Below, in pieces: positions 10,760-62,679 of a stretch of DNA of 64,000 bases (the stretch's first letter is position 1; each line of letters opens with the position of its first letter). The notes beneath the pieces are model-generated. The model searched no databases and was not told the origin of the DNA. It worked only from the letters and a program-made list of their open reading frames with translations. This DNA is from a virus. The stretch is taken from the IMG/VR virus record IMGVR_UViG_3300023215_003041. One strand, given 5' to 3'. A program made the position numbers and the translations under genes.

Positions 10760-12244
10760 TTATGCGGCTTGCATGATAGGGGTTACTAAGTCAACCGTTA
10801 CACCATTTTCAACTTGGGTTCGGTCATTCGATTTGTTTAATAGCTTTTTAGCAACGTGCAATTCCAGTCCACCTCGATACACAAGCAATGTGATCTTAAC
10901 GGGCTTTTCACGAACACCCCGTAAAGCTCGACGGTAGTTCTGAATAAAGGTGGTATCTTGCCAGTCAAAAGACATAAAAATAATGTGGTCTACATGCCCC
11001 CAGTTGAAACCCACTCCGGCCACCTCAGGGCTACAAATCAACACATCAATTTCACCGTTACGAAATCTATGGTCGATTTCACCACGACGAGACACAATAC
11101 TACCGTTAATAAACTCGGCCTTAAGCCCCAACCTTTCACAAATTTTCTTATATCGAGCGTGGGCCGTAACCACGACTTCAAAAATAATTAAAGGTTCTCC
11201 AGTGAACTTATGTGTCTCAAGATGCTGTATTAAGTGTGCGTCCTTACCATCCGACTCATTCTGGGCCAACCCGTATTCGTCAGGGGATTGCATAATTTTA
11301 AAGCACCGCTGCAGAGCCACAGCCTCGTTCTCAGCTTCCAAGAAATCATCGTCCAGCTCAGTTATGCCGCGTTGTTTAATCTCCGTAAACGCTTTGGCCT
11401 GAGAGGGCGACATAGTACACATTTCCGCATGGATTGATTTCTTTTCTTTCCCATACGCATCTTCATAGGTAATACGGCGGCTGTGACGGTCAATCAGCAT
11501 TTTCAACCGGTCATGGTTCTTCCACATAAACGGGTTCCCATACTCGTCTAACATGGCATGCCATAACATAAAGTTGTTGTAGGTGGGATAATACAGTGGA
11601 TTAATCAGTTTCAATCCTGGGTAAGCCGAACTTAACCGGCCATTGATATAGGTCCCCGTTAATACTAATAAATCCCCACCTCGAGCCATATACTGATACA
11701 TATTGTGGGTTCGTCGAGGCCCGTTGAACTCCCCAGGTTTATTGTATTTAGGCTCACCGTGGGTACTGAATCCTAAATGCCATTCATCCCCGCATAGATG
11801 GTAGGTGTCGGGATAGCGCTTAATGATCTCGTTATAGTTATTTGCAAACGAGTCAAACCCCATCATAAAGACTTTCGTTTCACGATTAGCAAACTGCTTT
11901 TCTCTTTGCTTAGGGGTACCATCTATAATAATAACTTGGTGAGGCTCGAGGTTAGACCACAACAATAACTCGTGGTAGTTCTTTACCAGTAGTGATTTAG
12001 GCATTGTCCAAATCACACGCCCTTCTTGTGTGTGATGGTAAACCCAGAGACAACCAACAGGTGTTTTACCGGTGCCGGCTTCTGAAAGATTCAGGCTACG
12101 TTTCTCAGCTAATGAGAAACCCAGATGGTCTATTTGATAATCACGTAAGGAGAGCGAACCCCGCTTATCATAAACATCATTCATATCAAACCAAGTGGCA
12201 TTAGCTGGCTGTTTTGGTATTGTCGCGTGCTTCATTCTGGCCAT
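10760..12244 (-). CDS. superfamily 2 (SNF2-like) helicase
   Basis: Walker A EAGTGKT, Walker B GDEWH, motif III LTGT, motif V AGVGFN, motif VI QNYRRALR. Confidence 0.85.
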   Translation of the reverse strand: MARMKHATIPKQPANATWFDMNDVYDKRGSLSLRDYQIDHLGFSLAEKRSLNLSEAGTGKTPVGCLWVYHHTQEGRVIWTMPKSLLVKNYHELLLWSNLEPHQVIIIDGTPKQREKQFANRETKVFMMGFDSFANNYNEIIKRYPDTYHLCGDEWHLGFSTHGEPKYNKPGEFNGPRRTHNMYQYMARGGDLLVLTGTYINGRLSSAYPGLKLINPLYYPTYNNFMLWHAMLDEYGNPFMWKNHDRLKMLIDRHSRRITYEDAYGKEKKSIHAEMCTMSPSQAKAFTEIKQRGITELDDDFLEAENEAVALQRCFKIMQSPDEYGLAQNESDGKDAHLIQHLETHKFTGEPLIIFEVVVTAHARYKKICERLGLKAEFINGSIVSRRGEIDHRFRNGEIDVLICSPEVAGVGFNWGHVDHIIFMSFDWQDTTFIQNYRRALRGVREKPVKITLLVYRGGLELHVAKKLLNKSNDRTQVENGVTVDLVTPIMQAA

Positions 12245-15887: not shown

Positions 15888-16220
15888 ATGGAGTATGCCA
15901 TGTTAAGAAGATACGATGAAACTATTGAGCTTGATTGGGAATTAGAACGCCGCCGAACTACAGCACGAAAATTTAAAAGTATGCGGCGACGTTACGCATT
16001 AACTCAAGAAGAACTCGCCCTTGCTGCTGACGTTCATAAAAATACTATTTCTAACGCCGAACGCTACGGTCGAATATCCCCCGAAGAATTCTATCGATAC
16101 CAACAAATCGCAAAGCAAGCACATAAGGATAAATCCGAGGGTGTCTTACTCAACAAAATTATCTTATCGGATATTTCCTTCGCCGATTTCAAGGAATTTC
16201 TCGCGACCTTCTTAGATTGA
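15888..16220 (+). CDS. XRE-family HTH transcriptional regulator
   Basis: MRRRYALTQEELALAADVHKNTISNAER; the only clear rightward gene in 1-37945. Confidence 0.8.
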   Translation: MEYAMLRRYDETIELDWELERRRTTARKFKSMRRRYALTQEELALAADVHKNTISNAERYGRISPEEFYRYQQIAKQAHKDKSEGVLLNKIILSDISFADFKEFLATFLD

Positions 16221-16222
16221 CC

Positions 16223-17068
16223 TTAATAGAGAACTGGTAACGTTGTTACCAGTTCATTTCTTTTCAGAAGTGGGACTTGGTTTTTGACCCAAACTTTGAT
16301 CTTCTCTAAACGTTCCGCTACCCGTGTTTTCTTATGCGCTACAACTTCGGATAGCGCCTGTTCAAGCGCCCAACCTTCACCCTCAGGACCGTAGAAACCC
16401 CAACAAGAATCATCGATATCTCCGGTGGCACTTTCGATAACATAACCATACACATTCCCCTCGAGAGCCGAGGCATAGGTTTCCACTTCCCCCTCAAGAT
16501 ACTTATAGCATTGCTGGATACGCTTTTCAGTGAGTCGCTTGAAGCCATATTCCTTACGGGCTTTTTCTTTACTGACATAGATAAAACCCACTTGGCCAGA
16601 GTCCCAGGCACAAGAGAAACCACCCGTATTCATCGTGATACCTGAATGGTCGTATAGGTAGAGGGGAAGCATCAGAAAGTACTTTTCCAATCGAGACTCG
16701 ATTTTAGCTTGTACTTGCTGGTTAAAATCGGCTAAGCCTTCGGCATTGCAACGGGTCTTAGGCCACTGGTTCTCAAAGCGTTCGAGAATTTCTTCAAAAC
16801 CAGGTTCGACTTCTTCAATCATCCCTATTTGATATTCCTGAGGGGTGATACTGGGTTGCTCATCCCCTAGATTATAGTTGCGGTGCCAGCAAACCATCGT
16901 GCCTACGTTATCCCACTCGCGGGGACTTTCATAGTGATCGTCTCGCTCTATCTTGATAACGATATCTTTGATGTGAGTCTCAGACTCACCAATAGTATCT
17001 AGGTTTGAGAAGGGGATATTTAAAGCTTTGCAGTGCTTTTCTAAAGCATTTTTCAGTTCAGTATTCAT
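16223..17068 (-). CDS. conserved hypothetical phage/MGE protein
   Basis: LPLYLYDHSGITM...WDSGQVGFIY...SCWGFYG; conserved leader. Confidence 0.75.
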   Translation of the reverse strand: MNTELKNALEKHCKALNIPFSNLDTIGESETHIKDIVIKIERDDHYESPREWDNVGTMVCWHRNYNLGDEQPSITPQEYQIGMIEEVEPGFEEILERFENQWPKTRCNAEGLADFNQQVQAKIESRLEKYFLMLPLYLYDHSGITMNTGGFSCAWDSGQVGFIYVSKEKARKEYGFKRLTEKRIQQCYKYLEGEVETYASALEGNVYGYVIESATGDIDDSCWGFYGPEGEGWALEQALSEVVAHKKTRVAERLEKIKVWVKNQVPLLKRNELVTTLPVLY

Positions 17069-17432: not shown

Positions 17433-17792
17433 TCAAGATATAGTTTCCTCTTCACGCCACTTATCAGCCTCACTTTCGCAAAGCAAAGCGGTAGCCACTG
17501 ACTGAGCCAAGCGCCATTTTAATTCGTTCCCCGTACCGCCAGCGGTTTTATATTCATAAAATGAGTCAAAGTAGCAATAATTAGGATCGGCTTTATCAAA
17601 CTCTATTTGCAAGCGCTCTAAGCGAGTAAGGGCGAGCATTTGGATTACCCTAGAAACATCGTTTGGTATAGATCTATCACCCTTTTCCCATCGTTGCCAC
17701 GTTCTTGGCTCACACTCACCAATGAGTTGAGCTGCTTCACTCACTTCGAGGAACAATAAGCGTCTAAGCTGTTTTAGTTCGTTATTTGTCAT
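17433..17792 (-). CDS. aca2: anti-CRISPR-associated repressor Aca2 (HTH, DUF1870-like)
   Basis: MTNNELKQLRRLLFLEVSEAAQLIG...WQRWEKG...WRLAQSVA closely matches Aca2 as recalled; lies directly downstream of acrIF9. Confidence 0.88.
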   Translation of the reverse strand: MTNNELKQLRRLLFLEVSEAAQLIGECEPRTWQRWEKGDRSIPNDVSRVIQMLALTRLERLQIEFDKADPNYCYFDSFYEYKTAGGTGNELKWRLAQSVATALLCESEADKWREEETIS

Positions 17793-17835
17793 AATAAAAC
17801 TCCAAAATAAAAGGGGCTTATTAGCCCCAAGAAAA

Positions 17836-18042
17836 TTACTGGCAATCAACCCAGCGCTTGCCGTCCTCTTTATAAGCCAACCACAATCCATTTACTGTTT
17901 CTATACGCATTACAGTACCATGGAAACACTGATTTTTTGATGCAATACGCTTAGCTTGAGATAGTGAAGTTGTCTCGATTTGAGTGCCTTCACGTTCTGA
18001 ATTGATGTTTTGAACTTCTTTGATGATGTATGCAGTTTTCAT
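17836..18042 (-). CDS. acrIF9: type I-F anti-CRISPR protein AcrIF9 (68 aa)
   Basis: MKTAYIIKEVQNINSEREGTQIETTSLSQAKRIASKNQCFHGTVMRIETVNGLWLAYKEDGKRWVDCQ is near-identical to the Vibrio AcrIF9 sequence as recalled; acr-aca2 gene order. Confidence 0.9.
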   Translation of the reverse strand: MKTAYIIKEVQNINSEREGTQIETTSLSQAKRIASKNQCFHGTVMRIETVNGLWLAYKEDGKRWVDCQ

Positions 18043-29138: not shown

Positions 29139-29327
29139 CTACTTCATTCGGGCTTTTGACGCACGTTCAGCCTCGATACGCTGCTGTATTTCCTCGCGGT
29201 GTACAGAAACTTCTCGGGGAGCATTAACACCCACGCGAACTTGATTCCCATGTACCCCCAGGATAGACACCGTAACATTGTCACCAATAACAACAGCTTC
29301 ACCGATACGTCTGGTTAGTATTAACAT
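29139..29327 (-). CDS. csrA: carbon storage regulator CsrA/RsmA homolog
   Basis: [47 protein letters not shown] is the canonical CsrA signature. Confidence 0.95.
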
Positions 29328-33261: not shown

Positions 33262-33299
33262 ACACACACACACACACACATACACACACACACACACAC
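33262..33299. repeat. (AC)n dinucleotide microsatellite next to an A-run
   Basis: About 19 AC units with one T interruption, preceded by A11 at 33238-33248. Confidence 0.95.
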
Positions 33300-34265: not shown

Positions 34266-34458
34266 TTGTCGATTTCCTTAAAAGTTAATTGTTAGTGGTG
34301 GGGACTTCCCCACCGGTTAGAGCAGTAAAACGGGTGTTGCTCGAACGTGATTCACTATATAAGGGGGGGTGGTTTTTATGCAAGAAAATGGCTTGATATA
34401 GTGGGGTTGCCCCAACACTCCACCTGAAAAATTTTTGGGATTTTGGGAGGTAGTATCT

Positions 34459-34520
34459 AAACCCTCAATCCTAGAAACTAGAAACTCAACCCTAGAAACT
34501 CAACCCTAGAAACTAGAAAC
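34459..34520. repeat. heptamer array CTAGAAA x5 (spacing 7, 14, 14, 7)
   Basis: Copies at 34471, 34478, 34492, 34506, 34513 interleaved with CTCAACC. Confidence 0.85.
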
Positions 34521-34559
34521 AAAAGTGAGGAACGCGGGACTGGGGTGGTGGCCTAAAAG

Positions 34560-34590
34560 AAAACCCTCAGCTTTTTGAGCTGAGGGTTTG
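34560..34590 (-). terminator. intrinsic terminator
   Basis: AAACCCTCAGCT-CAAAA-AGCTGAGGGTTT followed by TCTTTT on the minus strand. Confidence 0.75.
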
Positions 34591-34735
34591 AGACAATTAT
34601 TTGCCTTAGGCGTTAATTGTAGATTTCCGAAACAATTAAACAACATGGTCAAGTGTCTTGGAACGTTCGTCGATTTCCTGATTGTGGTGCCTGATAAACC
34701 CCTGATTATTTTGGGGTCTCTCGGCGACGTAGACT

Positions 34736-34764
34736 AAAGTATAGGATTTGGTCTGGTTGGTCAA
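34736..34764 (-). promoter_or_regulatory. putative sigma70 promoter
   Basis: TTGACC followed by TATACT (15-nt spacer) or TACTTT (17-nt spacer). Confidence 0.5.
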
Positions 34765-34959
34765 CGGGGTAAAAAGCGCAAATAAGGTTCGGCCTATATT
34801 ACCAATACGTCAAATTGGACTGGGGGTAACACAGGAAAATTGTGCAAAGTAAAGAGAAAACATAGGCTACAGAGGGGGTGAGTGTAACCCAAAAAAGGCA
34901 AGAAAATTTTTTGTAAAAATGTGAACTTTTTTTCTTGCCTTTCAGTAGGTGTTTATTAA

Positions 34960-42970: not shown

Positions 42971-43021
42971 GTCGGGAATGATTGAACCAACTCTTTAGAA
43001 TTTACAATTTGGAGATCGACG

Positions 43022-44233
43022 ATGCAGGCACAAAACCTAAGTCAGATTAAACGCGCCCCTTTAGCGGTAGTACTAAATGGAATTGACAGCGACGACCAAG
43101 AAGTCTCTCGCCGTGCAGGGGTAAGGCTAGTTCAAGAAGCCAAAAAGTACGGCATCAATGTCCGTGATTACTTAAACCTTTCGGTTGATGTACACGCGTC
43201 TAACGATGAGAAAGCTGGTAAGCATTTCCGTCTAGGTAACGGTCAATATATGACTGGCTATCAAGCGGCTATTGTGGACCTTAACCTCCCGTTTAAAAAC
43301 GCGTTTGAAGAAGGTATCACCCTCCAAGCCGCGGCGGATACTTTTAGTGCTCGCCCTGGGTCCCGAGCGCTATTCCCCGAAGTTATCGACGATATGCTTC
43401 AATGGAATAGTCGCCAAGATATGTTTGAGTCTACGGCCCCGATGGTTGCCCAAACCCGAACTATTTCAGGTACCGAACTTATCACTACGGCTATTTTTGA
43501 CGACCAAGGCGAGTTGAATACGTCGCCTCTAGCAGAATTAGCCAACATTCCGATGCAGACTATCACCAGCTCTGATAAATCCGTCCGATTCTTCAAGCAT
43601 GGTTCAGGTATTCGTACTTCGTATGAATTTGAGCGTCGTGTCAGCCTTGATATCTTAACCCCTTATGCGGCTCGTATTGCGCGTAATAAAGAAATCAGCA
43701 AAGTGAAAATGGCGACCAACCTGTTAATTAACGGGGATGGTGTACATGGTGCTGCCGAGGTTGTTGCCGCGTCAGATTATAAGAACTGGGACGTAACAGG
43801 GGGTAAATCGCTTAAAGACAACTATGTTGCTTTAGCCGATTTCTTTGCTCGTCGTGCGCGTAAAGGTACCCCTGTAGACATTATCGTGGGCAACTACGAT
43901 ATGTGGCTAGAAATGTTCTTAATGTTCTTGCCAACGCAACCTAACGGTAAGTCAACGGCGGAAGTCCTACAAGAAAGAGGTGGCCCTAAGGTTGCCTTGA
44001 TGATGGATTTCCTTAACGGCGTGAACTTCCATATTTCGAGCTCTGCGCCAACCGGAAAACTTATCTGCTATTCAAAAGCGGATACGTTAGAAGAATTGAT
44101 CGAAGCAGGGTCGGTTCTGTCTGAGTCTGAAACCGCGATTAAGAACCAGTCAATTACTTACGTGAAAACTGAAAACTCCGGTTATCGCCTCGTTTACGGC
44201 GACACACGTGTCGTTTTCGACACCCTGGCATAA
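43022..44233 (+). CDS. major capsid protein
   Basis: 403 aa, synteny, best-matching leader, followed by a terminator. Confidence 0.78.
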   Translation: MQAQNLSQIKRAPLAVVLNGIDSDDQEVSRRAGVRLVQEAKKYGINVRDYLNLSVDVHASNDEKAGKHFRLGNGQYMTGYQAAIVDLNLPFKNAFEEGITLQAAADTFSARPGSRALFPEVIDDMLQWNSRQDMFESTAPMVAQTRTISGTELITTAIFDDQGELNTSPLAELANIPMQTITSSDKSVRFFKHGSGIRTSYEFERRVSLDILTPYAARIARNKEISKVKMATNLLINGDGVHGAAEVVAASDYKNWDVTGGKSLKDNYVALADFFARRARKGTPVDIIVGNYDMWLEMFLMFLPTQPNGKSTAEVLQERGGPKVALMMDFLNGVNFHISSSAPTGKLICYSKADTLEELIEAGSVLSESETAIKNQSITYVKTENSGYRLVYGDTRVVFDTLA

Positions 44234-47590: not shown

Positions 47591-47645
47591 GATTCATCCT
47601 CCTTCAACAAGGTATCAATAGTAACCTAAAATTTGGAGATTGACG

Positions 47646-48476
47646 ATGGCTGGTGAAGCTAAAACCACTAATTTTATGTTGGGTACTGCCACAGTAATGA
47701 TTGGTAAACCCGAAGAATTATACGACCTTAACCCAGAACAACATTCGGTTGGTCTAGTTAAGAATTTCACAATCGAATCGCAAAAAGAAAGTACCGACCT
47801 TCCTCAAGGCCGTACTAACGAGATTGCGTTCTCTATTACCACGGGATCTACTACCCGAGGTACCTTTGAAATGTACGAATACACCGAGCAAAACTTAGCC
47901 TATGCGTTAGGTTTAGACGGTGGTGAGCTGGTTGAAGTTACCGGCGATGCCCATGTGCTATCGGCTGAGGCTTCATTTGCTTCGGGGACTGCAACCCTAC
48001 AGCTTATTGACGGTGTTGGCCAAAATGTGGAAGTCGGTAATACGGTAAGTGTTCGTGATGAAGTATCTGAAAATATTGTTATTGCGAAGGTTACGGACGT
48101 TACTGGTATTTCGGAGGGTACCGCGACAACGGCCACGATTGAACTAACAATCCCTGATAGCGATTCTACTCAGACCTTAGCCGCGGGTTCTTATGTCTCG
48201 GTAGTTAATGTCCTGGACTTAGGCTCAACCTCCGACGAGCTTCGTTACGCAGCAAAAGTTATCGGGCAGCTCGCTAATGGTATTTGGGTTACCTTCCTTA
48301 TCCCTAAATTCCGTGTGAGTTCTGGACTAACGATGGCCTTTGGTACGGACAACTTCGGGAATATCCCTTTTGAGTTCACGCCGATTCGTGTTAACCCTAC
48401 AGACCCGTACTATGCGGAGTTTAAAGGTAAAACGGGTAAAATGCTTAAAGATTCGGTTAAGGCCCCTCTAAGCTAG
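47646..48476 (+). CDS. major tail tube protein
   Basis: LGTATVMIG...VGLVKNFTIE...FEMYEYT; followed by a terminator and chaperone genes. Confidence 0.75.
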   Translation: MAGEAKTTNFMLGTATVMIGKPEELYDLNPEQHSVGLVKNFTIESQKESTDLPQGRTNEIAFSITTGSTTRGTFEMYEYTEQNLAYALGLDGGELVEVTGDAHVLSAEASFASGTATLQLIDGVGQNVEVGNTVSVRDEVSENIVIAKVTDVTGISEGTATTATIELTIPDSDSTQTLAAGSYVSVVNVLDLGSTSDELRYAAKVIGQLANGIWVTFLIPKFRVSSGLTMAFGTDNFGNIPFEFTPIRVNPTDPYYAEFKGKTGKMLKDSVKAPLS

Positions 48477-55200: not shown

Positions 55201-55236
55201 TTAATAGCATCAATTCCTAGAGGTAAGAACAAATGA
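49216..55236 (+). CDS. tape measure protein (2006 aa)
   Basis: Long helical protein; TP901-type segment (SEKTKFTATEVADAAITLGQAG, LGAMANSGIRAGSTLGTGLRQ). Confidence 0.9.
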   Translation: MAKGSSASNTIRKTLLNFTIDGNSQKQIESLVKEFEKLERVTKSSSKQLQGYLAQIPDTPAGREKLASNAKNEVNTQRKILQENEKNAKAILDQLALTIGKGLNPQQQQQLLKGLNTAMGEITGRFTKQAQEQAKKMAASLDTYYKKQFDSNPTIKRRRQIDPNAVRDYNQRDLANALASQRIFRKGASEALKDAQRLGDTEAIARFKKKLQSLDAGLTAAEKQLKKFETTASEAAKQSTKVRKEAERKTLADYRREALRLDPTVPKTDPLRKDALRSLTRDQIQVEIDKNKVLKRAADSALKQGLTAGDTSLIRDSSKALKELKHSTKEAKEQLSQLTIESRKAADAEKKAQQKAASLDTYYKKQFDSNPAIKRRRQIDPNAVRDYNQRDLANALASQRIFRKGASDALKDAQRLGDTDAIPKFKKNLLRLDAGIAAAEKQLKKFEDTTREAAKQSNKARNEAERKTLADYRREALRLDPTVPKTDPLRGGSLRSLTRDQIQVELDKNKVLKGAADKALKQGLDTGNTALVRDSSKALKELKKSTNEAKEQLKALTRQSREAEQLEREKIKGAKAKAPVTEQQRVNRRIEQIQQARTNQRLDGGAQLFRNQGQLLRNYAVMGAGIGGITTSAIFSTELDRQFKQLQSIVNLTNVEMEELSTNLIDVSEKTKFTATEVADAAITLGQAGLGQKDIQNAIEGVTLFATAVGSDLKSAVDLATSTLGVFNKDSSQMLNIVDKMTTAVNNSKLNLDKLTLGLQYSGNLAAQSNVTFEETVSALGAMANSGIRAGSTLGTGLRQIIISLQKPSDTFIRTVQALGISMSDLDITAHGLIPVMRTLAERGFTVRDAMESMEVRAASAYGAFANNIEVAEELSEQMRIGGSSARANETQMGALSNQLARLSSISKSIVYESLEPLLDVITGLTETTADFLSVVRDLGPALSVLAVPASIFGSLLASRSVLSLGAGLLGGVEMLTGGGKKGKSKGNIFSRLINVAKGRGVGRAVGLAARAIPGVGTATLLGTGAVYGYQYLDGRQRANDRVDNTQARLNQGQAETKAYQDQLKKVGGTIDTLILKQHNLADNDALQREIRRLNDEFRQQGLYIDSSVDSYDKLIAKMLEFETSTRNGVNYLQKNNRRFYLENSEAKRSEIFSTGWFDSDAERLLTGQTNPLANGQNSQRNAATSRRRGQNAGVSNFYNKIIASVLPTFFEDLQEINDEIKNVDLTKEGALSQVKKARSKTRELEGELTRILNQSPEQLDALMGQFKLEGKARENAEKYIEDLAAAMLSRANVLLDIETNQKEWDSLDPEKIEGDRELSEFILTRRRDGLNGIADISQDIEGLFKEDENHETSDYLDTFKKVRDIVRDRLTQLVEHEAETISELTERGVANPRLVLQEQGYFQAQGNARGRLEKYLQSAALSARPDANLTYPARLAELDKEIEVLKERLRQVTDRDTSDEIKNKLKTLNTERETVANEQDTLFAAIDGNSPVSVAQRDRELKARIKFANEQFDALQEKTLIRESFEQSLLAKENIDPRQFRLLGDDDELSRLLSDVVNEQRTSISNQLKEVRLSAEELRRLSEDKLRESNEYVAIAENDGYTDETRERASGIANELKTQATELERSAIELEEQGVLTAKEALADFAEYLKRTIIDNPDLTGGRSSIKATKAVESIESETLSLDSNLIDLSQASKDADLSLRDFRMKMEDVTRAISMSPYETDKYNKVGAAIYGRSYRPLNGTGVDENYAGANEGSLGSSLSNAGQYVVDDVNKHYRSYDMLKQMTLEATEAAKGLGQAFGDTFTDLVTGAQSGENAIRSLGASILTQMANIASQAVANQLISSIFSMIGLGGGAANVGGMASTGAVGNLAGLRFTGGPILAGSYKVGGLITAGMDTRDSTYAKVSRGEFILRKPSVDALGIENVRALNSVDKSTIKQKEASTLKAKETISQISSTESGEVNVYVMSEKAQPQLGPNDVKVIIGDDIARDGEIATLIASIPRGKNK
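49627..50874 (+). repeat. internal tandem duplication in the tape measure gene (594-bp units, 654-bp period)
   Basis: 49627-50220 vs 50281-50874; both encode AASLDTYYKKQFDSNP...AKEQL. Confidence 0.9.
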
Positions 55237-55619
55237 GCTTAGAAGTTTTTGACTTTCCGTATCACAAGGTTTCTTATTCGTATCGTGAACGTTCCTCTAG
55301 GATCACGCTCGGTAATGATTGGGAGTATGTAACCAAGCCCTCAACGCCAGTATCTCGATTATTTAAGCTGTCGTTTGAAGCTATGAAATCTTTTGAAACA
55401 CCTCAAACTTTATCGCCGATGGAACGTAGATATAGTATTGATCACTTAGATGATTTTTACCAAAGACATGAACTTTGGAGTGAATTTTTATACAACCATC
55501 ATAGGTTTGGAAATGTCGTGGTTCGTTTTGATTCACCGTTACAAGTCCCTGAGGGCTATACCGAAGGTGATGGGGTATCACTCCCTTTTATTGTCACATT
55601 AAGAGAGATTCCACTTTAG
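55233..55619 (+). CDS. distal tail protein (lambda gpM-like)
   Basis: 128 aa directly after the tape measure gene. Confidence 0.6.
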   Translation: MSLEVFDFPYHKVSYSYRERSSRITLGNDWEYVTKPSTPVSRLFKLSFEAMKSFETPQTLSPMERRYSIDHLDDFYQRHELWSEFLYNHHRFGNVVVRFDSPLQVPEGYTEGDGVSLPFIVTLREIPL

Positions 55620-55655
55620 TCTTTAGTATAAAATTTATTTTTCGATATATTTTTA

Positions 55656-55684
55656 TTGACAAGTGAATCAAAAACACCTAATCT
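55656..55684 (+). promoter_or_regulatory. sigma70 promoter of the small RNA
   Basis: TTGACA-17 nt-TAATCT with an AT-rich upstream element. Confidence 0.75.
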
Positions 55685-55690
55685 TGAAGT

Positions 55691-55770
55691 CGGTTAGCAG
55701 CCCACGTGGCTCCTAATTATCGTCGATTTCCAAATTAACGCCCTAGCTTTTAGCTAGGGTGTTCTATTTT
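55691..55770 (+). ncRNA. candidate trans-acting antisense sRNA complementary to the conserved leader
   Basis: 5' hairpin 55692-55718, single-stranded AUCGUCGAUUUCCAAAUUA 55719-55737, terminator hairpin 55738-55762 plus U-rich tail; no ORF. Confidence 0.72.
55738..55770 (+). terminator. intrinsic terminator of the sRNA
   Basis: ACGCCCTAGCT-TTT-AGCTAGGGTGT-TCTATTTT. Confidence 0.7.
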
Positions 55771-55838
55771 GGCGCTTGAAAAATATTCAATCCTTTATTG
55801 TTTTCGGTATACTGAGGCAAATTTAAAGGAAATCGACG

Positions 55839-56327
55839 ATGAAAGAACTCTCTAACGAGGTGCGGTCTCAACGACATTCTTTGACCCCCGACGAACTAAC
55901 TACCTACCTACAATTAGAGATAGATGATCCTGATGGCGCTCCCGTCGTTATCCGACTTACGGATAAGAAAACCACCGACTGGAATGGAGTTACATGGGTT
56001 AAATCACCTTTCCAGCTTTCAGGGGTTTCTAAAAATTCAAGCAGCGAACGAAATCGGCCAAGTCTAACGTTACCGAATGAAGGCGGCATTTATAGTTACT
56101 ATATAAATCGAAGCTTGCTGGAAGATGCAATTGTAACTCGTTATAAAGCTATGCCCCATGAGTCGGCCAGTTCCCTTGTTTCTAAGCACGTATATTACGT
56201 ATCTCACCCGAGTAATATCGCGGGGGACCTACTTACTCTGCAATTGCGCCGGTTATCGGATGCCAACAAATATCAAATCCCCCCGAACCGGTATACTCAA
56301 CCCGAGTTTAGTACGGTGATAGTATGA
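55839..56327 (+). CDS. minor tail protein (gpL-like)
   Basis: RPSLTL...LEDAIVTRY; synteny. Confidence 0.6.
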   Translation: MKELSNEVRSQRHSLTPDELTTYLQLEIDDPDGAPVVIRLTDKKTTDWNGVTWVKSPFQLSGVSKNSSSERNRPSLTLPNEGGIYSYYINRSLLEDAIVTRYKAMPHESASSLVSKHVYYVSHPSNIAGDLLTLQLRRLSDANKYQIPPNRYTQPEFSTVIV

Positions 56328-57907: not shown

Positions 57908-57948
57908 GCCTTAAATAATTTAATTTATCGACGATATTAGGAACTTAA

Positions 57949-60900
57949 GTGGCTAATAACCAATTTAAGGGAACCGGTGGTGGTGGCGGAAGTAGCGCCT
58001 CTAACCAAGAAGATAATCTCTTTTCTACAGACGCTTTTGAATTTGTCCTAGGGATTTCCGAGGGGCCTATTGGTGGTATTGTCGGGGATACCCCTGAGGA
58101 AAAGTTACAAAATATATTTGTCGATGATGTACCGGTTTTTAATAGCATAAATGAGTCTAATTTCGATAACTCGAGTCTGATGATTCGTTTTGAAAATGGC
58201 ACTCCACTTAGCGCTAAAGAGGATGCCGAGGAAGGTCAGACTCCTATTTGGTTTTGCTTAGGTGGGCAAAATATTACGCAGCAAGTTTCCAGCAATCTCG
58301 CCTATGCCAGCCCCGTAACAAGAACTACCGTCCCAACTACGAAAGGTTTTGATGAGATAGAGCTGCGTTTTATCGTTTCTCAACTCGTTAAATATACGGA
58401 TGAAGGGTCGAAGAATAATACTTTATCTCTCGAGATAGCTTACAAAAATATTTTAGATAGTGAATGGACGATCAAAAACGTCTCTTTTACAGGTAAAACC
58501 ACGATTAGCCCTTTTGTAAAAGTGCATAATATCGTGATGCCTCGCACAAAACCTGAGGACCAGTTTGAAATACGTGTTAAGCGATTATCTCAAGATTCAA
58601 CAGATGAAGACATTGCCGAAGTTAACTGGGCCTCCTATGAATTACTCACGAAGACAGGGGACGCTTACACCGATAATGGTGTTGAGTATGACGACCCAGA
58701 CCTTGAGTACCACCCAGGGCTTTCGATGCTGCATGTTGCGGGAGTTTTAGGCCAGCAACTTACATCCATCCCCACCGTAAATGCTAATTACTATGGGCTT
58801 GAGTGCGCTATCCCGAGCAATTACGATCCCATCACTAAAACCTATGACGAAACAGAGGTTTGGAATGGCCAATTTAAAGCAAAGAAACATTGGACAGATA
58901 ACCCTTTTTGGATTGCTTATGAATTGGTGACTAATCTCGACTGGGGTATGGTTCGTTACAACCCTCGAGTGAAGATAAATCGCTATTCGGTTTATCGTAT
59001 GGCTAAGTACGCTGACGGTTACGACCTTCACACAGATGAAAAGAATTTAACTAACCCGATAACGGGTGAGCAACAGGCCGCACGTTATACCTTCAATATT
59101 GTGTTAACCAGCCCAAAAAACGGATGGGATATCCTACGGTATGTGTTGGGAAGTGCTTTTGCTCGACCGATAGAAACAGACTTAGGGGAAATAAAATTTC
59201 TTGCGGATTTACCCGAAGCCCCTGTGGCCACAATCACCCCCGAAATGTGTGTGTCTTCCTCAGGGGGGAGTCCTTACAATTACAATTTCTCGGCGATATC
59301 TGAAAGACACAACGCGCTAACCTCAAGTTACATTGATGCGTCGATGGATTATCAAGAGCAGTATGTCTCAGAGATAAGAGACGAGGACTCAATCAATAAA
59401 TACGGGCTTAACCCTTACGAATTTGAAGCCGTAGGCGCTACTGATATTTGGGAAGTTAAGCGTCGTATGACTTTTTATCTTTCCTCCGTCACCACAGAAA
59501 CGCGAACGATATCTTTTAGTAGTACTTTACAAGGTATGGCGTTTGAGCCCATGGATATTATCAACATCGTTGATCCTGTTGCTGGATACGCATATTCCGG
59601 TCGAGCGGTGAAGCTGGAGACTAAAGCTATAACACTACGTGACCCTGTGTATTTTGATGAGGCTGGGGTTTACAACGTTACGGTTATGGGGACTAGCGAG
59701 GACTATAGTTACACCACGCAAATTTCTTCCTCAAACCTAGATCAACCTATTTACCGGTTAAAAATACAAGGCTTTTTACCCGATTTATCACAGTTCAATC
59801 GCTATCCTCCCGTGGTTATTTCCGCGTCGGAAGAAGGTCAGATAATTGGTCTTCCTAAACCTTATCGGATATTAAAATGCAGTGAAAATACGTCGATAAA
59901 AGGGGTATATGATTTTGTTTGCCAAGAGGTGAATCTTAATAAACACGTCGATGCGGATAACCTGATAATTTCGGAAGCGCCCCAACACTCATTTCTATTA
60001 AAGCCTCAAGTTCGTAAAGTAACGAATTTACGGATTGTTGATGAAGAACATTTACAGTTGCGTGGATTAGAGCAAATAAATTTATGGGTTGCTTGGGATA
60101 TCGTTGCACCTTTACCGCCTGGGGGTTACTTCGAGATTAAGATTAAAGAGGAATCTACGAATGGTCGCGAGTATATTTCTAAAACCGTTAACCAATACTT
60201 TGAAATACAGAACGTAAAAATTGGGGACGTCCGTATTGAGGTTCGCAGTGTGCAGGGAGATACCCAGAGCGCATGGACAACCTTAGACTGGGTGACCACG
60301 ATGGTACTGTCTGCAGATATGAAAGACCAAGGGGTATCCCCTGAAATCAGTATTAAATACGAGAACTACACCCTTACGATAGAAAGCAAGGTTATGTATC
60401 AGTTTGGGGAACTGGATATTCAACAGATAGACCTCTTAGAAACCAGTAGCGTTCAAGGTATACAGTTCAACATCCACAATGATTTAGACCCTGAGAATAG
60501 GCCTTTATTATTTACCAAAATAGGTAAATCTACGCTTCAAGTTACCAAAAGTGATTTTGAAATTGCGGTCTCCGGCGGGGAACTTCCTAGTAATTTATAT
60601 ATAACGGCTAGGGTTATTGACCTTGCAGGGGGAACTTACCCTAATTTATTAGAAAGTCCTCTATCATTTCTGGTTAGTACCCCTGTGGCGGCGATTACGA
60701 ATCTTAGCTACGAGTATGTTGATTCAGATGAAACACCGCACTTATTGACGTGGGACGATAACAATTACGCCTATCAAGTAATAATCTATAAGCCTGATGG
60801 GCGCACGATACAGGATTCTTACCAGACTTATTCAGCTAGCCAAGCCTTCGGGTTTCTTAAGGCTGAGACTGGCTATGTGGCGTCCGTGGCGGGGGTATCT

Positions 60901-62679
60901 TCAACATTGAAGTATGGGACACCTACAAAAATAACTTTTAATGTTAGTGCGCCCCCAACCCCAGAGGACGACCCGACGATCCTTAATCAAGAAGGGGTAA
61001 TAACTCTTACCCCACCTAAGGTCTCGGTAAACACGTCTTACTATGAATTCAAATATCATTCTGAGAATGTCATTAGTGATGCGGCGGATTACTCGAATGG
61101 TGACTCAATAACCTTATATGCCCAACGCGCCGGACAATCATTCCATATCTGGTATAGGTTATCCTCTCGGGAGGGATTCGGAATTTGGCGCCATCATAAT
61201 GTAATAGCGGAAAAAGCCTTCACGCCGGATGTTGACGAGATATTTGATGGTATTGTTAATAAAGAAGATACCCCTTGGGGAGCTTCGCTAAGCCAGAGAT
61301 TATCGACTATTGCTGCGGACCTTGAGGTATGGAGTGAACAACAGGGCGAACTTGGACAAAATTATTCTACGTTGCAATACAACGTTTCGGGCCTAGTTTC
61401 AGAAAACCAATTACGTGCGCTCGATATACTAGCGATTAAGGAAAAAGTTGGGGATACGAGTGTTCAAGCTCAGATAACGGAATTTAAAAATGTCCAGATA
61501 GGCTACGAAGATGCGCAAGGAAATTGGGTTGAAGGTGCGGCCTTTGCCCAAGCTTTTAGTGAAGCAAAAATTCTTAATAGTTCAGGTGATTACGTAACCG
61601 CGTTCTCATACTTCCATGCGATTGAAGATGCTTTAGGAGAGTTATCGGGACGCATTGAATTTGCGATAGATGCTAATGGGCATGTGACCGGTATATTTAT
61701 TGACGGTAGTGAGTCAGCATCAAGAATAACATTTCAATCTCAAAATACTTCTTGGGTCGATCTGCAAGGCAATATCGTCTTAGGTGTTAATTCCTCTACC
61801 AACGAGCTTGAATTCCATGGGAGCGGGACCTTTTCAGGGGCCTTAAAATCCCCAACATATGAAATGATTGGTGATGAATATATGAAAGTGGAGAGAGCAG
61901 CCCCTTTCGGGCCGGATAACCTACGATTATGGAAGGGGCCTGTTATTTTAGGACCAAATAATGAACCCGACTACGCCAATCTCACTAAATCTAATGGTGT
62001 TGCTTGGGAAGATGAGGATGGCTTTGAATTCAAAGGTGGTGGTCTTACTTTATCTGGAGTGCTGGAAACCAGCGCCCTTCGGGTAGGTTCAGGGTTAATG
62101 ATTTCAGACGCCAATAAGACCGCCCCAATCATTGTTATGAGTATGGCTAATTCACGCTCGAACGCACAAGTATTTAGGTCGCTAACAAGTAATAAATTTG
62201 TGGGTCCTACATATGAGCGTGAAGAAGGGCAGATATACGACAACTGGCGGTTAGTTAACTATAAAAGTGATTTGTGGTTAAAGGTGTTGTGCGTTAAACA
62301 TGCTGGAAATAACAAGCCGATGACCGTTGAAGTAAAAACTTTTTACACAATGGTAGATACAGCACATCCGGCCCACAATACGTGGGAAACCATAAGTAGC
62401 ATTTCGGTTGACTATTCATACGATTACGGGACGTTATACATGCCATATGTTTACACAACGCGAGAGGAGCCGTGGGAAACCCTCAGTGTTCAAGTAACGG
62501 CGAACAGTACGGATAGCGCAGGGAAACCCTTGTCTTTGTCGCTAGAAATTCAAGCGTTTAATAACGTTTCAAGCCCTAGAACAGAACACACAATTACAGG
62601 GGACACATACGAACCCGAAGACACCCAGCCAACAGTGCCAGGGATACCGTGGTGGAAAACTGGCCATCCAGGGCCGTAG
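57949..62679 (+). CDS. central tail fibre / host-specificity protein (gpJ-like)
   Basis: GISEGPIGG, WTDNPFW, RYTFN, FEAVGAT; FN3-like middle; 1576 aa. Confidence 0.88.
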   Translation: MANNQFKGTGGGGGSSASNQEDNLFSTDAFEFVLGISEGPIGGIVGDTPEEKLQNIFVDDVPVFNSINESNFDNSSLMIRFENGTPLSAKEDAEEGQTPIWFCLGGQNITQQVSSNLAYASPVTRTTVPTTKGFDEIELRFIVSQLVKYTDEGSKNNTLSLEIAYKNILDSEWTIKNVSFTGKTTISPFVKVHNIVMPRTKPEDQFEIRVKRLSQDSTDEDIAEVNWASYELLTKTGDAYTDNGVEYDDPDLEYHPGLSMLHVAGVLGQQLTSIPTVNANYYGLECAIPSNYDPITKTYDETEVWNGQFKAKKHWTDNPFWIAYELVTNLDWGMVRYNPRVKINRYSVYRMAKYADGYDLHTDEKNLTNPITGEQQAARYTFNIVLTSPKNGWDILRYVLGSAFARPIETDLGEIKFLADLPEAPVATITPEMCVSSSGGSPYNYNFSAISERHNALTSSYIDASMDYQEQYVSEIRDEDSINKYGLNPYEFEAVGATDIWEVKRRMTFYLSSVTTETRTISFSSTLQGMAFEPMDIINIVDPVAGYAYSGRAVKLETKAITLRDPVYFDEAGVYNVTVMGTSEDYSYTTQISSSNLDQPIYRLKIQGFLPDLSQFNRYPPVVISASEEGQIIGLPKPYRILKCSENTSIKGVYDFVCQEVNLNKHVDADNLIISEAPQHSFLLKPQVRKVTNLRIVDEEHLQLRGLEQINLWVAWDIVAPLPPGGYFEIKIKEESTNGREYISKTVNQYFEIQNVKIGDVRIEVRSVQGDTQSAWTTLDWVTTMVLSADMKDQGVSPEISIKYENYTLTIESKVMYQFGELDIQQIDLLETSSVQGIQFNIHNDLDPENRPLLFTKIGKSTLQVTKSDFEIAVSGGELPSNLYITARVIDLAGGTYPNLLESPLSFLVSTPVAAITNLSYEYVDSDETPHLLTWDDNNYAYQVIIYKPDGRTIQDSYQTYSASQAFGFLKAETGYVASVAGVSSTLKYGTPTKITFNVSAPPTPEDDPTILNQEGVITLTPPKVSVNTSYYEFKYHSENVISDAADYSNGDSITLYAQRAGQSFHIWYRLSSREGFGIWRHHNVIAEKAFTPDVDEIFDGIVNKEDTPWGASLSQRLSTIAADLEVWSEQQGELGQNYSTLQYNVSGLVSENQLRALDILAIKEKVGDTSVQAQITEFKNVQIGYEDAQGNWVEGAAFAQAFSEAKILNSSGDYVTAFSYFHAIEDALGELSGRIEFAIDANGHVTGIFIDGSESASRITFQSQNTSWVDLQGNIVLGVNSSTNELEFHGSGTFSGALKSPTYEMIGDEYMKVERAAPFGPDNLRLWKGPVILGPNNEPDYANLTKSNGVAWEDEDGFEFKGGGLTLSGVLETSALRVGSGLMISDANKTAPIIVMSMANSRSNAQVFRSLTSNKFVGPTYEREEGQIYDNWRLVNYKSDLWLKVLCVKHAGNNKPMTVEVKTFYTMVDTAHPAHNTWETISSISVDYSYDYGTLYMPYVYTTREEPWETLSVQVTANSTDSAGKPLSLSLEIQAFNNVSSPRTEHTITGDTYEPEDTQPTVPGIPWWKTGHPGP

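Follow-up and report, generated by a model that had tools for sequence, protein, structure and literature searches.

The 64,000-nucleotide (nt) stretch of viral DNA analysed here (IMG/VR record IMGVR_UViG_3300023215_003041, referred to below as the window) carries, in a protein-free gap between two tail genes, a putative small RNA (sRNA) gene whose open segment mirrors a leader sequence present at the start codons of dozens of the phage's own genes. Our analyses favour, with moderate confidence, the interpretation that this gene produces a trans-acting anti-leader sRNA that blocks translation initiation on the leader-bearing phage genes. The evidence comprises the anatomy of the gene, a transcript 5′ end at the predicted place, the conservation of the whole unit among related phages and the changes that leader and anti-leader seed have undergone together. 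Such an RNA had been proposed in a first reading of the sequence (the initial annotation), and sequence, comparative and public transcript data lend that proposal support within their reach: those of its predictions and refuting conditions that could be examined computationally all turned out in its favour.

Anatomy of the putative anti-leader RNA gene and its leaders

The gap that houses the putative sRNA gene (55620-55838) separates a gpM-like from a gpL-like tail gene. The promoter, as read from the sequence, occupies 55656-55684 on the + strand, with the -35 box TTGACA at 55656-55661, a 17-nt spacer and the -10 box TAATCT at 55679-55684. The inferred transcription start is the seventh base past the -10 box, 55691 (+), where metatranscriptome contigs begin. 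Folds then place on the same strand a 5′ hairpin at 55692-55718 (outer stem of 6 base pairs (bp), inner stem of 4 bp, loop of 5 nt), followed by the single-stranded seed ATCGTCGATTTCCAAATT(A) at 55719-55737, which is the exact reverse complement of the leader consensus, and an intrinsic terminator at 55737-55771 (+), consisting of a 12-bp stem (55737-55763) with a 3-nt loop and a U-rich tail (55764-55771). The terminator was also called by a scan of the + strand, with 12 pairs, and the RNA predicted from promoter to terminator is ~80 nt long. RNAfold of 55691-55772 returned the same order of hairpin, open seed and terminator at -31.2 kcal/mol (z = -5.25), and none of 200 shuffled sequences was as stable, so that the promoter, hairpin, exposed 19-mer and terminator described in the initial annotation were all found in their places.

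The 19-mer at 55719-55737 is the only copy of the leader in the window that lies in the opposite orientation, and on the minus strand behind it neither a start codon nor a conserved open reading frame (ORF) was found when 55620-55838 was examined. Between the sRNA terminator and the gpL-like gene there is a second promoter-like site, TTCAAT-16-TATACT (55786-55813, +), which was recognised by sequence conservation; its TATACT is invariant among all close relatives and the flanking bases are conserved in them. It is followed by the local leader copy and ATG of the gpL-like gene (55828-55841, +), whose match to the seed is restricted to a 13-14-nt core, compared with 19 nt in other leaders. Rfam at gathering score gave no matches in the window, and ARAGORN found no transfer RNA or transfer-messenger RNA genes there.

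The leader has the form GGAAATYGACGAT(A)TG, its core GGAAATYGACGAT standing directly 5′ of the ATG or A-ATG of operon-leading genes in both arms of the genome, and at ~35-40 such genes it spans a weak GGA Shine-Dalgarno sequence, the spacer and the first base or bases of the start codon. Genes inside operons have ordinary AAGGAG-type sites, whereas the leader genes have the GGA alone. In the window, the 18-mer leader was matched 21 times at ≤3 mismatches compared with 0.22 matches expected by chance, and the 13-nt core occurs 27 times at ≤1 mismatch, with the inverted copy counted in; leader sites (≤3 mismatches) with an ATG next to them number 36, and at least six additional leaders lie just past the left end of the window. 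A genome-wide RNAduplex scan with the seed gave ~35 sites at -20 to -29 kcal/mol, every one of them at a start codon, and the non-leader background starts near -18 kcal/mol. The 30 genes with a complementary leader in the initial annotation are consequently a fair and even conservative count. That annotation had also singled out two virion genes as pairing with G:U wobbles only, and this holds for both: the leader of the major capsid gene (leader 43006-43024, +; gene 43022-44233, with a weak Pfam Phage_capsid_4 match) pairs continuously over 19-20 nt at -27.3 kcal/mol, and that of the gene in the tail-tube position (leader 47630-47648, +; gene 47646-48476) over 19-20 nt at -25.8 kcal/mol. About 27 further copies lie on the - strand at the starts of early and replication genes between 3632 and 37956 (for example at 17066, 15660, 21632, 22716, 24545 and 29076).

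Several observations concern the surroundings and variants of the leader. Leaders stand directly behind inter-cistronic hairpins or palindromes, which in the window take the form GGTGGGG-N4-CCCCACC; the counterpart in the related Pseudoalteromonas phage KB12-38 (L011/L035) is a GGGGTAACGTTACCCC-type repeat present ~16 times in its first 50 kb. The gpJ-like gene, which starts with GTG, has the leader core (ATCGACGAT or AATTGACGAT) ~17-20 nt upstream together with a separate Shine-Dalgarno sequence (window 57915-57951, +; ~12040-12104 in the related contigs L055 and L057), and the core is therefore retained even at a gene whose ribosome-binding site lies elsewhere. The intergenic region 34266-34959 (-) by the primase gene contains a promoter-terminator unit with a sense leader copy lacking a start codon (~34666-34680), which is followed by GTTTCTAG/GGTTGAG iteron-like repeats (~34460-34525). 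A blastn search with this unit (34560-34764) gave no match in the group of related contigs termed clade B, in which the adjoining iteron region alone is conserved, and the unit was not counted into the conserved leader/anti-leader system. A role for the leader as the -35 box of intragenic promoters was rejected, there being no excess of -10-like sequences 16-18 nt downstream (17%, 7% and 4% compared with a background of 5-7%).

The locus is present in public marine metatranscriptomes, from which assembled contigs were examined over a 2.4-kb stretch. Contigs begin at 55691, 55691 and 55697 in three samples (X25, X26 and X27, respectively). Contig depth in the three runs was 0, 0 and 5-7 upstream and 51, 9 and 21.5 downstream, and in a fourth run it climbs from 12 to 82 across the locus. 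In X26 and X27, signal within the 2.4-kb stretch is found from 55691 onward only. These data speak for promoter activity where it was predicted, with substantial caveats. The contigs are strandless, the + strand having been assigned from the promoter position and the G:U pairs described below, and their depth is flat along each contig; standard libraries lose RNAs of 80 nt.

Conservation of the unit and co-variation of leader and seed

As a blastn search of the locus against 50,697 phage records gave no match, relatives were reached only by way of their large terminase (TerL) or gpL proteins, or with the leader motif as query. A leader-based scan of IMG/VR yielded four complete relatives of ~80 kb (G001-G004) with ~36 leaders each and exactly one opposed leader pair apiece, spaced 109-111 nt apart and syntenic with window positions 55719/55828. 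The gpL-like protein led to further relatives, namely the clade B contigs, L049/L050, L055, L057 and L058. Scans of viral and metagenome contigs based on gpL returned clade B only and no new lineages, and those of GTDB genomes returned nothing; a single-protein scan of viral contigs likewise returned nothing, and a hairpin-motif scan of viral contigs returned known contigs and one chance match in coding DNA (L072).

The 13 distinct gap sequences obtained from relatives align, with the whole unit at the same place in each. They share a conserved -35 box, TTGAC(N), a TAnnnT -10 box at a distance of 16-17 nt with variable spacer sequence, and 7-8 nt to a hairpin whose stem is conserved and whose loop varies; the seed, the terminator and the second promoter-like TATACT before the gpL leader follow. 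Pairing in the terminator stem is kept in spite of U-A/C-G and C-G/U-G changes. All homologues fold into the three-part shape and the seed is unpaired in each minimum free energy (MFE) fold. Across seven distinct homologues, 98.6% of stem cells are paired, compared with 33-51% when partners are slid. Both stems contain G:U pairs, such as (2,28), (3,27) and (11,19) in the 5′ hairpin, which would be C/A mismatches on the - strand. These pairs are valid on the + strand alone, an indication that the functional molecule is the + strand RNA. The unit of promoter, hairpin, open seed and + strand terminator is conserved in six lineages, including KB12-38, in which all the flanking sequence is different.

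The initial annotation had suggested examining related phages for co-variation of leader and seed, and such co-variation was found: the two have changed together in four lineages (the window, clade B, L057 and KB12-38). In the window, one leader position (Y) is C at 17 sites and T at 18, and the seed has a G there that pairs with either; in clade B every leader has T at this position and the seed has A. In L057, whose gpL is 58% identical to that of the window, three of the four clearest leaders have GAGAAT and one has GTGAAT ahead of TGACGATG, and the seed is CATCGTCAATTCT (ATTCT), which relative to clade B (GGAAAT/ATTTCC) amounts to two compensatory substitutions in leader and seed. KB12-38 has a syntenic 167-nt gap with unalignable flanks and ~25 genes with a shorter leader, AATTTGGATTGACA; the order within its gap is TTGACT-17-TACTAT, TGTCAATCCAAATA and an unrelated terminator hairpin with a T-run, and its leader GGATTGACA and seed TGTCAATCC have in common a 2-nt deletion and an altered 3′ end. 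Where leaders deviate, transitions after which the seed can still pair (A>G, C>U) are more frequent than those that disrupt pairing, by 27 to 7 in the window, 15 to 7 in G001 and 12 to 2 in KB12-38.

The seed also fits the genome-wide leader better than its immediate neighbour. In the window it matches the consensus leader over 19 nt and the adjacent gpL leader over 13-14 nt, and in KB12-38 its match is to GGATTGACAATATG, the consensus form, and not to the GGATTGACTATG next to it; both findings favour action in trans. Outside the lineages with the unit, the gpM-like and gpL-like genes of the distant relatives Lumi, Achromobacter 2-1, Seuss and Mystique adjoin without a gap. No leader was found in the first 50 kb of Lumi, where no repeated 11-mer exceeds four copies compared with 12-16 in the marine clade. 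No relative was found that keeps the leader and has lost the complementary locus, and the comparison suggests that leader and anti-leader locus co-occur or are both absent, within a limited sampling of one distant genome over its first 50 kb.

The window represents most of a marine siphovirus genome of ~80-90 kb with a G+C content of 44.8%. Its leftward arm (1 to ~38,000) holds replication and accessory genes, including those for a family-A DNA polymerase, a D5-type primase-helicase, ligase, RadC, CsrA and Aca2, and its rightward arm holds the large terminase, a gene in the portal position, capsid, tail tube, a tape measure of 2006 amino acids (aa) and a lambda-like tail-tip module made up of the gpM-like gene (55233-55619), the gpL-like minor tail gene (55839-56327, +), a gpK-like NlpC/P60 gene (56324-56809) and the gpJ-like gene (57949-62679). 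The closest named relative is KB12-38 (TerL identity 53%), and farther ones are Achromobacter phages JWF and 2-1, Caulobacter phage Seuss, Xylophilus phage Lumi and a set of Acinetobacter phages. KB12-38 and G001-G004 encode an integrase and an excisionase, and on this gene content the phage group to which the window belongs is judged to be temperate. The sole clearly divergent gene of the leftward arm, 15888-16220 (+), encodes an HTH_3 (Xre/CI-like) protein of 110 aa and is a candidate for a CI-type prophage repressor; its clade B homologues are 66-69% identical and there a leader-like GAAAATTGACGAT stands at the 5′ end of the gene. An Aca2/YdiL-like protein (PF08965, E = 8e-16; 17433-17891, -) is in line with an acr-aca cassette, and suggests that the host has a type I-F CRISPR system. 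The accessory-gene block also contains two (AC)9 microsatellite runs 2 nt apart (33262-33299).

A candidate protein partner accompanies the leader and sRNA. KB12-38 is annotated with a ProQ-like protein, Pfam PF04352 was matched in KB12-38 and G001 above the gathering score (E = 4e-13), and tblastn found a ProQ-domain gene in G001-G004. The window's own phage has a ProQ/FinO-domain gene (168 aa) at 10720-11226 of L063, a contig with a DNA polymerase identical to that of the window, and this gene lies ~5.4 kb past the window's left end. On L063 it is preceded by a degenerate leader, GGGAATCGGATG, for which the predicted seed pairing is weak. FinO/ProQ-domain proteins recognise terminator hairpins with 3′ tails, and in the RocC/RocR system one sRNA together with a FinO-domain protein silences several mRNAs in trans (PMC9977716). 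The 3′ module of the sRNA, with its terminator hairpin and tail, is predicted to be of the type bound by such proteins. The window also encodes a genuine CsrA (PF02599, E = 1.9e-23; 29139-29327, -), which was not found in G001-G004 or KB12-38. These relatives retain leader and sRNA, so that CsrA is ruled out as a conserved reader of the leader and is an accessory gene of the window's lineage.

Alternative readings and a proposed mechanism

A number of observations weigh against repression in trans by a discrete anti-leader sRNA. The window's -10 box, TAATCT, is weak, agreeing with the consensus at three of six positions, and the promoter was not called by a consensus scan; relatives have TAGTAT or TAATAT. 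All three runs that support the transcript 5′ end come from a single study, and the contigs pass the terminator and end at 56013-56045 inside the gpL-like ORF. Termination is therefore incomplete and a read-through RNA exists; the RNA detected is at least 320-355 nt long and could be a 5′ untranslated region (UTR), the ~80-nt species being a prediction. Of the ~80-nt + strand transcript proposed in the initial annotation, these contigs bear out the start. In the MFE fold of the read-through RNA (55691-55880, z = -4.6) the seed pairs with the local leader and the start site is buried. Intramolecular covariation is not significant among the seven near-identical sequences, the observed score being reached in 206 of 500 shuffles. 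In the window, the wobble bias derives mostly from the Y position, being 9 to 7 (p = 0.4) when that position is left out, and co-variation between inverted repeats could stem from concerted evolution instead of selection for pairing. Finally, one sRNA gene could not repress ~35 abundant lytic mRNAs stoichiometrically during lytic growth.

Of the alternatives to repression in trans, the one that survives best, although we hold it to be unlikely, is that the RNA acts in trans but not as a simple repressor. The leader duplex would in that case guide processing or stabilisation (for example, RNase III maturing polycistronic transcripts, or 5′-end protection) or would activate or coordinate translation as an adaptor. 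Duplexes of 19-20 bp are long enough for RNase III under the established length requirement of that enzyme, and the hairpins and palindromes directly ahead of the leaders, as well as the contrast between the GGA-only sites of leader genes and the AAGGAG-type sites of internal genes, agree with such a role. Some of the targets, capsid and tail tube among them, encode products that are required in large amounts and whose late silencing would be undesirable for the phage. In characterised cases, however, pairing over the Shine-Dalgarno sequence and start codon blocks initiation, and the leaders have no structure that would need opening, the palindromes upstream being self-contained.

Almost equal in standing, and unlikely as well, is action in cis alone: the RNA that begins at 55691 would be the 5′ UTR of the gpL-like tail-tip operon, its terminator serving as an attenuator and the anti-leader hiding the operon's own ribosome-binding site, with the match to 35 other leaders a by-product of the likeness between leaders. 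The passage of contigs across the terminator into the gpL-like ORF, the pairing of seed with local leader in the read-through fold and the constant spacing of anti-leader and local leader in all close relatives speak for this arrangement. It does not account for the fit of the seed to the consensus over the full 19 nt in the window or to the consensus form in KB12-38, and it sits poorly with a second conserved promoter-like site between terminator and gpL-like gene, with contigs that end within the ORF at ~56045, no full-length mRNA being seen, and with the expression of the same gene in distant relatives that have no gap at all.

It is quite improbable, in our view, that the locus has no RNA function and that the 19-mer is either an inverted orphan of the leader cassette (hairpin plus leader) left by rearrangement and kept alike by recombination, or a DNA site for a leader-binding protein, with the promoter driving the downstream tail genes. 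Read on the - strand, the order of hairpin and then leader does mimic the usual inter-genic cassette, repeats can homogenise, and on that strand clade B continues with a mini-ORF of three codons that has an AGGAG site. This mini-ORF was dropped as a candidate as it is not conserved in L049, L055 or L057, and no start codon or ORF follows the 19-mer in the window. Conservation of the unit in six lineages, one of them with different flanks, stem G:U pairs that are good on the + strand only, a transcript 5′ end at the predicted +1 and the lack of a -35-box signature in the leaders also argue against it. The least probable alternative is that the leader is read mainly by phage CsrA, for which a true gene in the window and a GGA at the Shine-Dalgarno position speak, or by the ProQ-like protein, encoded in every lineage, with the anti-leader RNA as a secondary modulator or antagonist; five relatives (G001-G004 and KB12-38) keep leader and sRNA without CsrA, the anti-leader contains no GGA and so would not be a CsrA sponge, and proteins of the FinO/ProQ type are known to bind sRNA terminators rather than short linear leaders (PMC9977716).

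Under the favoured reading of a trans-acting repressor, the sRNA would be transcribed rightward from a host sigma-70-type promoter with its start at 55691, as a species of ~80 nt and a read-through fraction. It would pair in trans with the leaders and shut out 30S binding over the Shine-Dalgarno sequence and start codon, cleavage of the duplex may follow, and pairing would probably be helped by the phage ProQ/FinO-domain protein and/or host Hfq. In lysogens, leaky or incoming leader transcripts would be silenced by this post-transcriptional threshold, giving tight lysogeny and homo-immunity, and massive lytic transcription would titrate the sRNA out. Threshold behaviour is a known property of sRNA regulation. 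In the read-through RNA, the seed would sequester the gpL-like start in cis, so that the lysogenic transcript would yield no tail-tip protein. From the temperate nature of the phage, a host-type promoter inside the late region and the fact that in two samples the transcript is the sole signal within the 2.4-kb stretch, we infer a lysogeny-associated role, and the anti-leader RNA probably functions as a threshold or immunity layer in lysogens; its expression in lysogens is only suggested by these data.

Relation to known systems and significance

Viewed against characterised systems, the anti-leader RNA would belong to the base-pairing regulatory RNAs, a known principle in the new arrangement of a leader regulon that extends across the phage. 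To our knowledge, known phage sRNAs have one phage gene or host genes as their targets. Our search of the literature, including a 2025 review of phage sRNAs (PMC12197685), found no phage RNA aimed at a common leader of many phage genes. The nearest counterparts in mechanism are RocC/RocR of Legionella pneumophila and FinO/FinP of F-like plasmids, in both of which translation is repressed by a single sRNA that has a terminator hairpin and whose exposed seed pairs within the 5′ UTR or ribosome-binding region of its target, with a FinO/ProQ-domain protein supplied by the same element or regulon, and RocR acts in trans on several mRNAs (PMC9977716). The present RNA differs from these in being encoded by a phage, in having ~35-40 targets instead of one to four, in addressing the phage's own genes, virion genes included, and in having as target box a near-identical leader of 13-19 nt that takes in the start codon; the partnership of ProQ and sRNA is here a candidate one.

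Phage immunity RNAs offer a second comparison. The CI immunity RNA of P4 is a temperate-phage RNA that pairs at or near a ribosome-binding site, and co-varying RNA/target pairs set hetero-immunity; like c4 of P1 and P7, it is processed from the operon that it controls and acts on one operon (the alpha operon for P4 CI, ant for c4), whereas the gene described here stands alone in the tail module with its own promoter and terminator, and its predicted targets number in the dozens and are scattered over the genome. The same pairing site and the same basis of hetero-immunity are described for c4 (PMC12197685). STnc6030 of the Salmonella prophage BTP1, sar of P22 and OOP of lambda are also comparable as non-coding RNAs in or near prophage late genes that base-pair with phage mRNA, with superinfection exclusion as a possible outcome (PMC12197685). 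These three are cis-antisense RNAs fully complementary to one overlapping gene, in contrast to the present locus, which overlaps no gene on the other strand and has a short seed with many distant targets.

For the leader, the closest parallel is provided by the start-associated sequences (SAS) of Cluster K mycobacteriophages, an asymmetric 13-bp motif found at 10-19 genes, a few bases before the ATG, and conserved beyond the needs of a ribosome-binding site (PMC3203893). SAS have one orientation, save for a single opposite copy per K1 genome located away from gene starts (PMC3203893), and their function was unexplained as of 2024-2025. The window's leader resembles SAS as an asymmetric motif of ~13 nt that stands, at many genes, only a few nt from the ATG and extends beyond what ribosome binding needs. 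The SAS consensus, GGGATAGGAGCCC, is unrelated to the window's leader in sequence, host and phage lineage, and the likeness is by analogy alone; SAS carry a full AGGAG and precede non-structural genes only, whereas the window leader has GGA and precedes virion genes too. In the Mycobacterium phage Anaya, we located the reverse SAS (L061:39871-39883; record 59870-59882) on the transcribed strand between gp96 and gp97, which are separated by 385 bp of non-coding DNA, with no clear promoter, hairpin or terminator frame around this copy. By analogy it could be an anti-SAS RNA, which we offer as a lead and not as a finding.

More tentatively, it is possible that leader/anti-leader pairs constitute an RNA 'translational immunity code' of this temperate phage family, in which one sRNA and a phage ProQ/FinO chaperone would hold nearly the whole proteome under a titratable threshold, and in which the seed/leader variants of the window, clade B, L057 and KB12-38 would define immunity groups in the manner of repressor/operator pairs. 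The same layout of many copies at gene starts and one inverted copy may also explain the Cluster K start-associated sequences, a question open since 2011.

Phage gene expression is usually ascribed to transcription cascades. In the present phage, most operon-leading genes appear to be within reach of one RNA by way of a common start-site leader, and since KB12-38 and its host have been cultured, the idea is open to direct testing. If it is true, a temperate phage would possess a switch or immunity layer that works post-transcriptionally and genome-wide, and its leader/seed pairs would provide a natural orthogonal translation-control set; for other start-associated repeats of phage genomes that still lack an explanation, it would supply a testable hypothesis.

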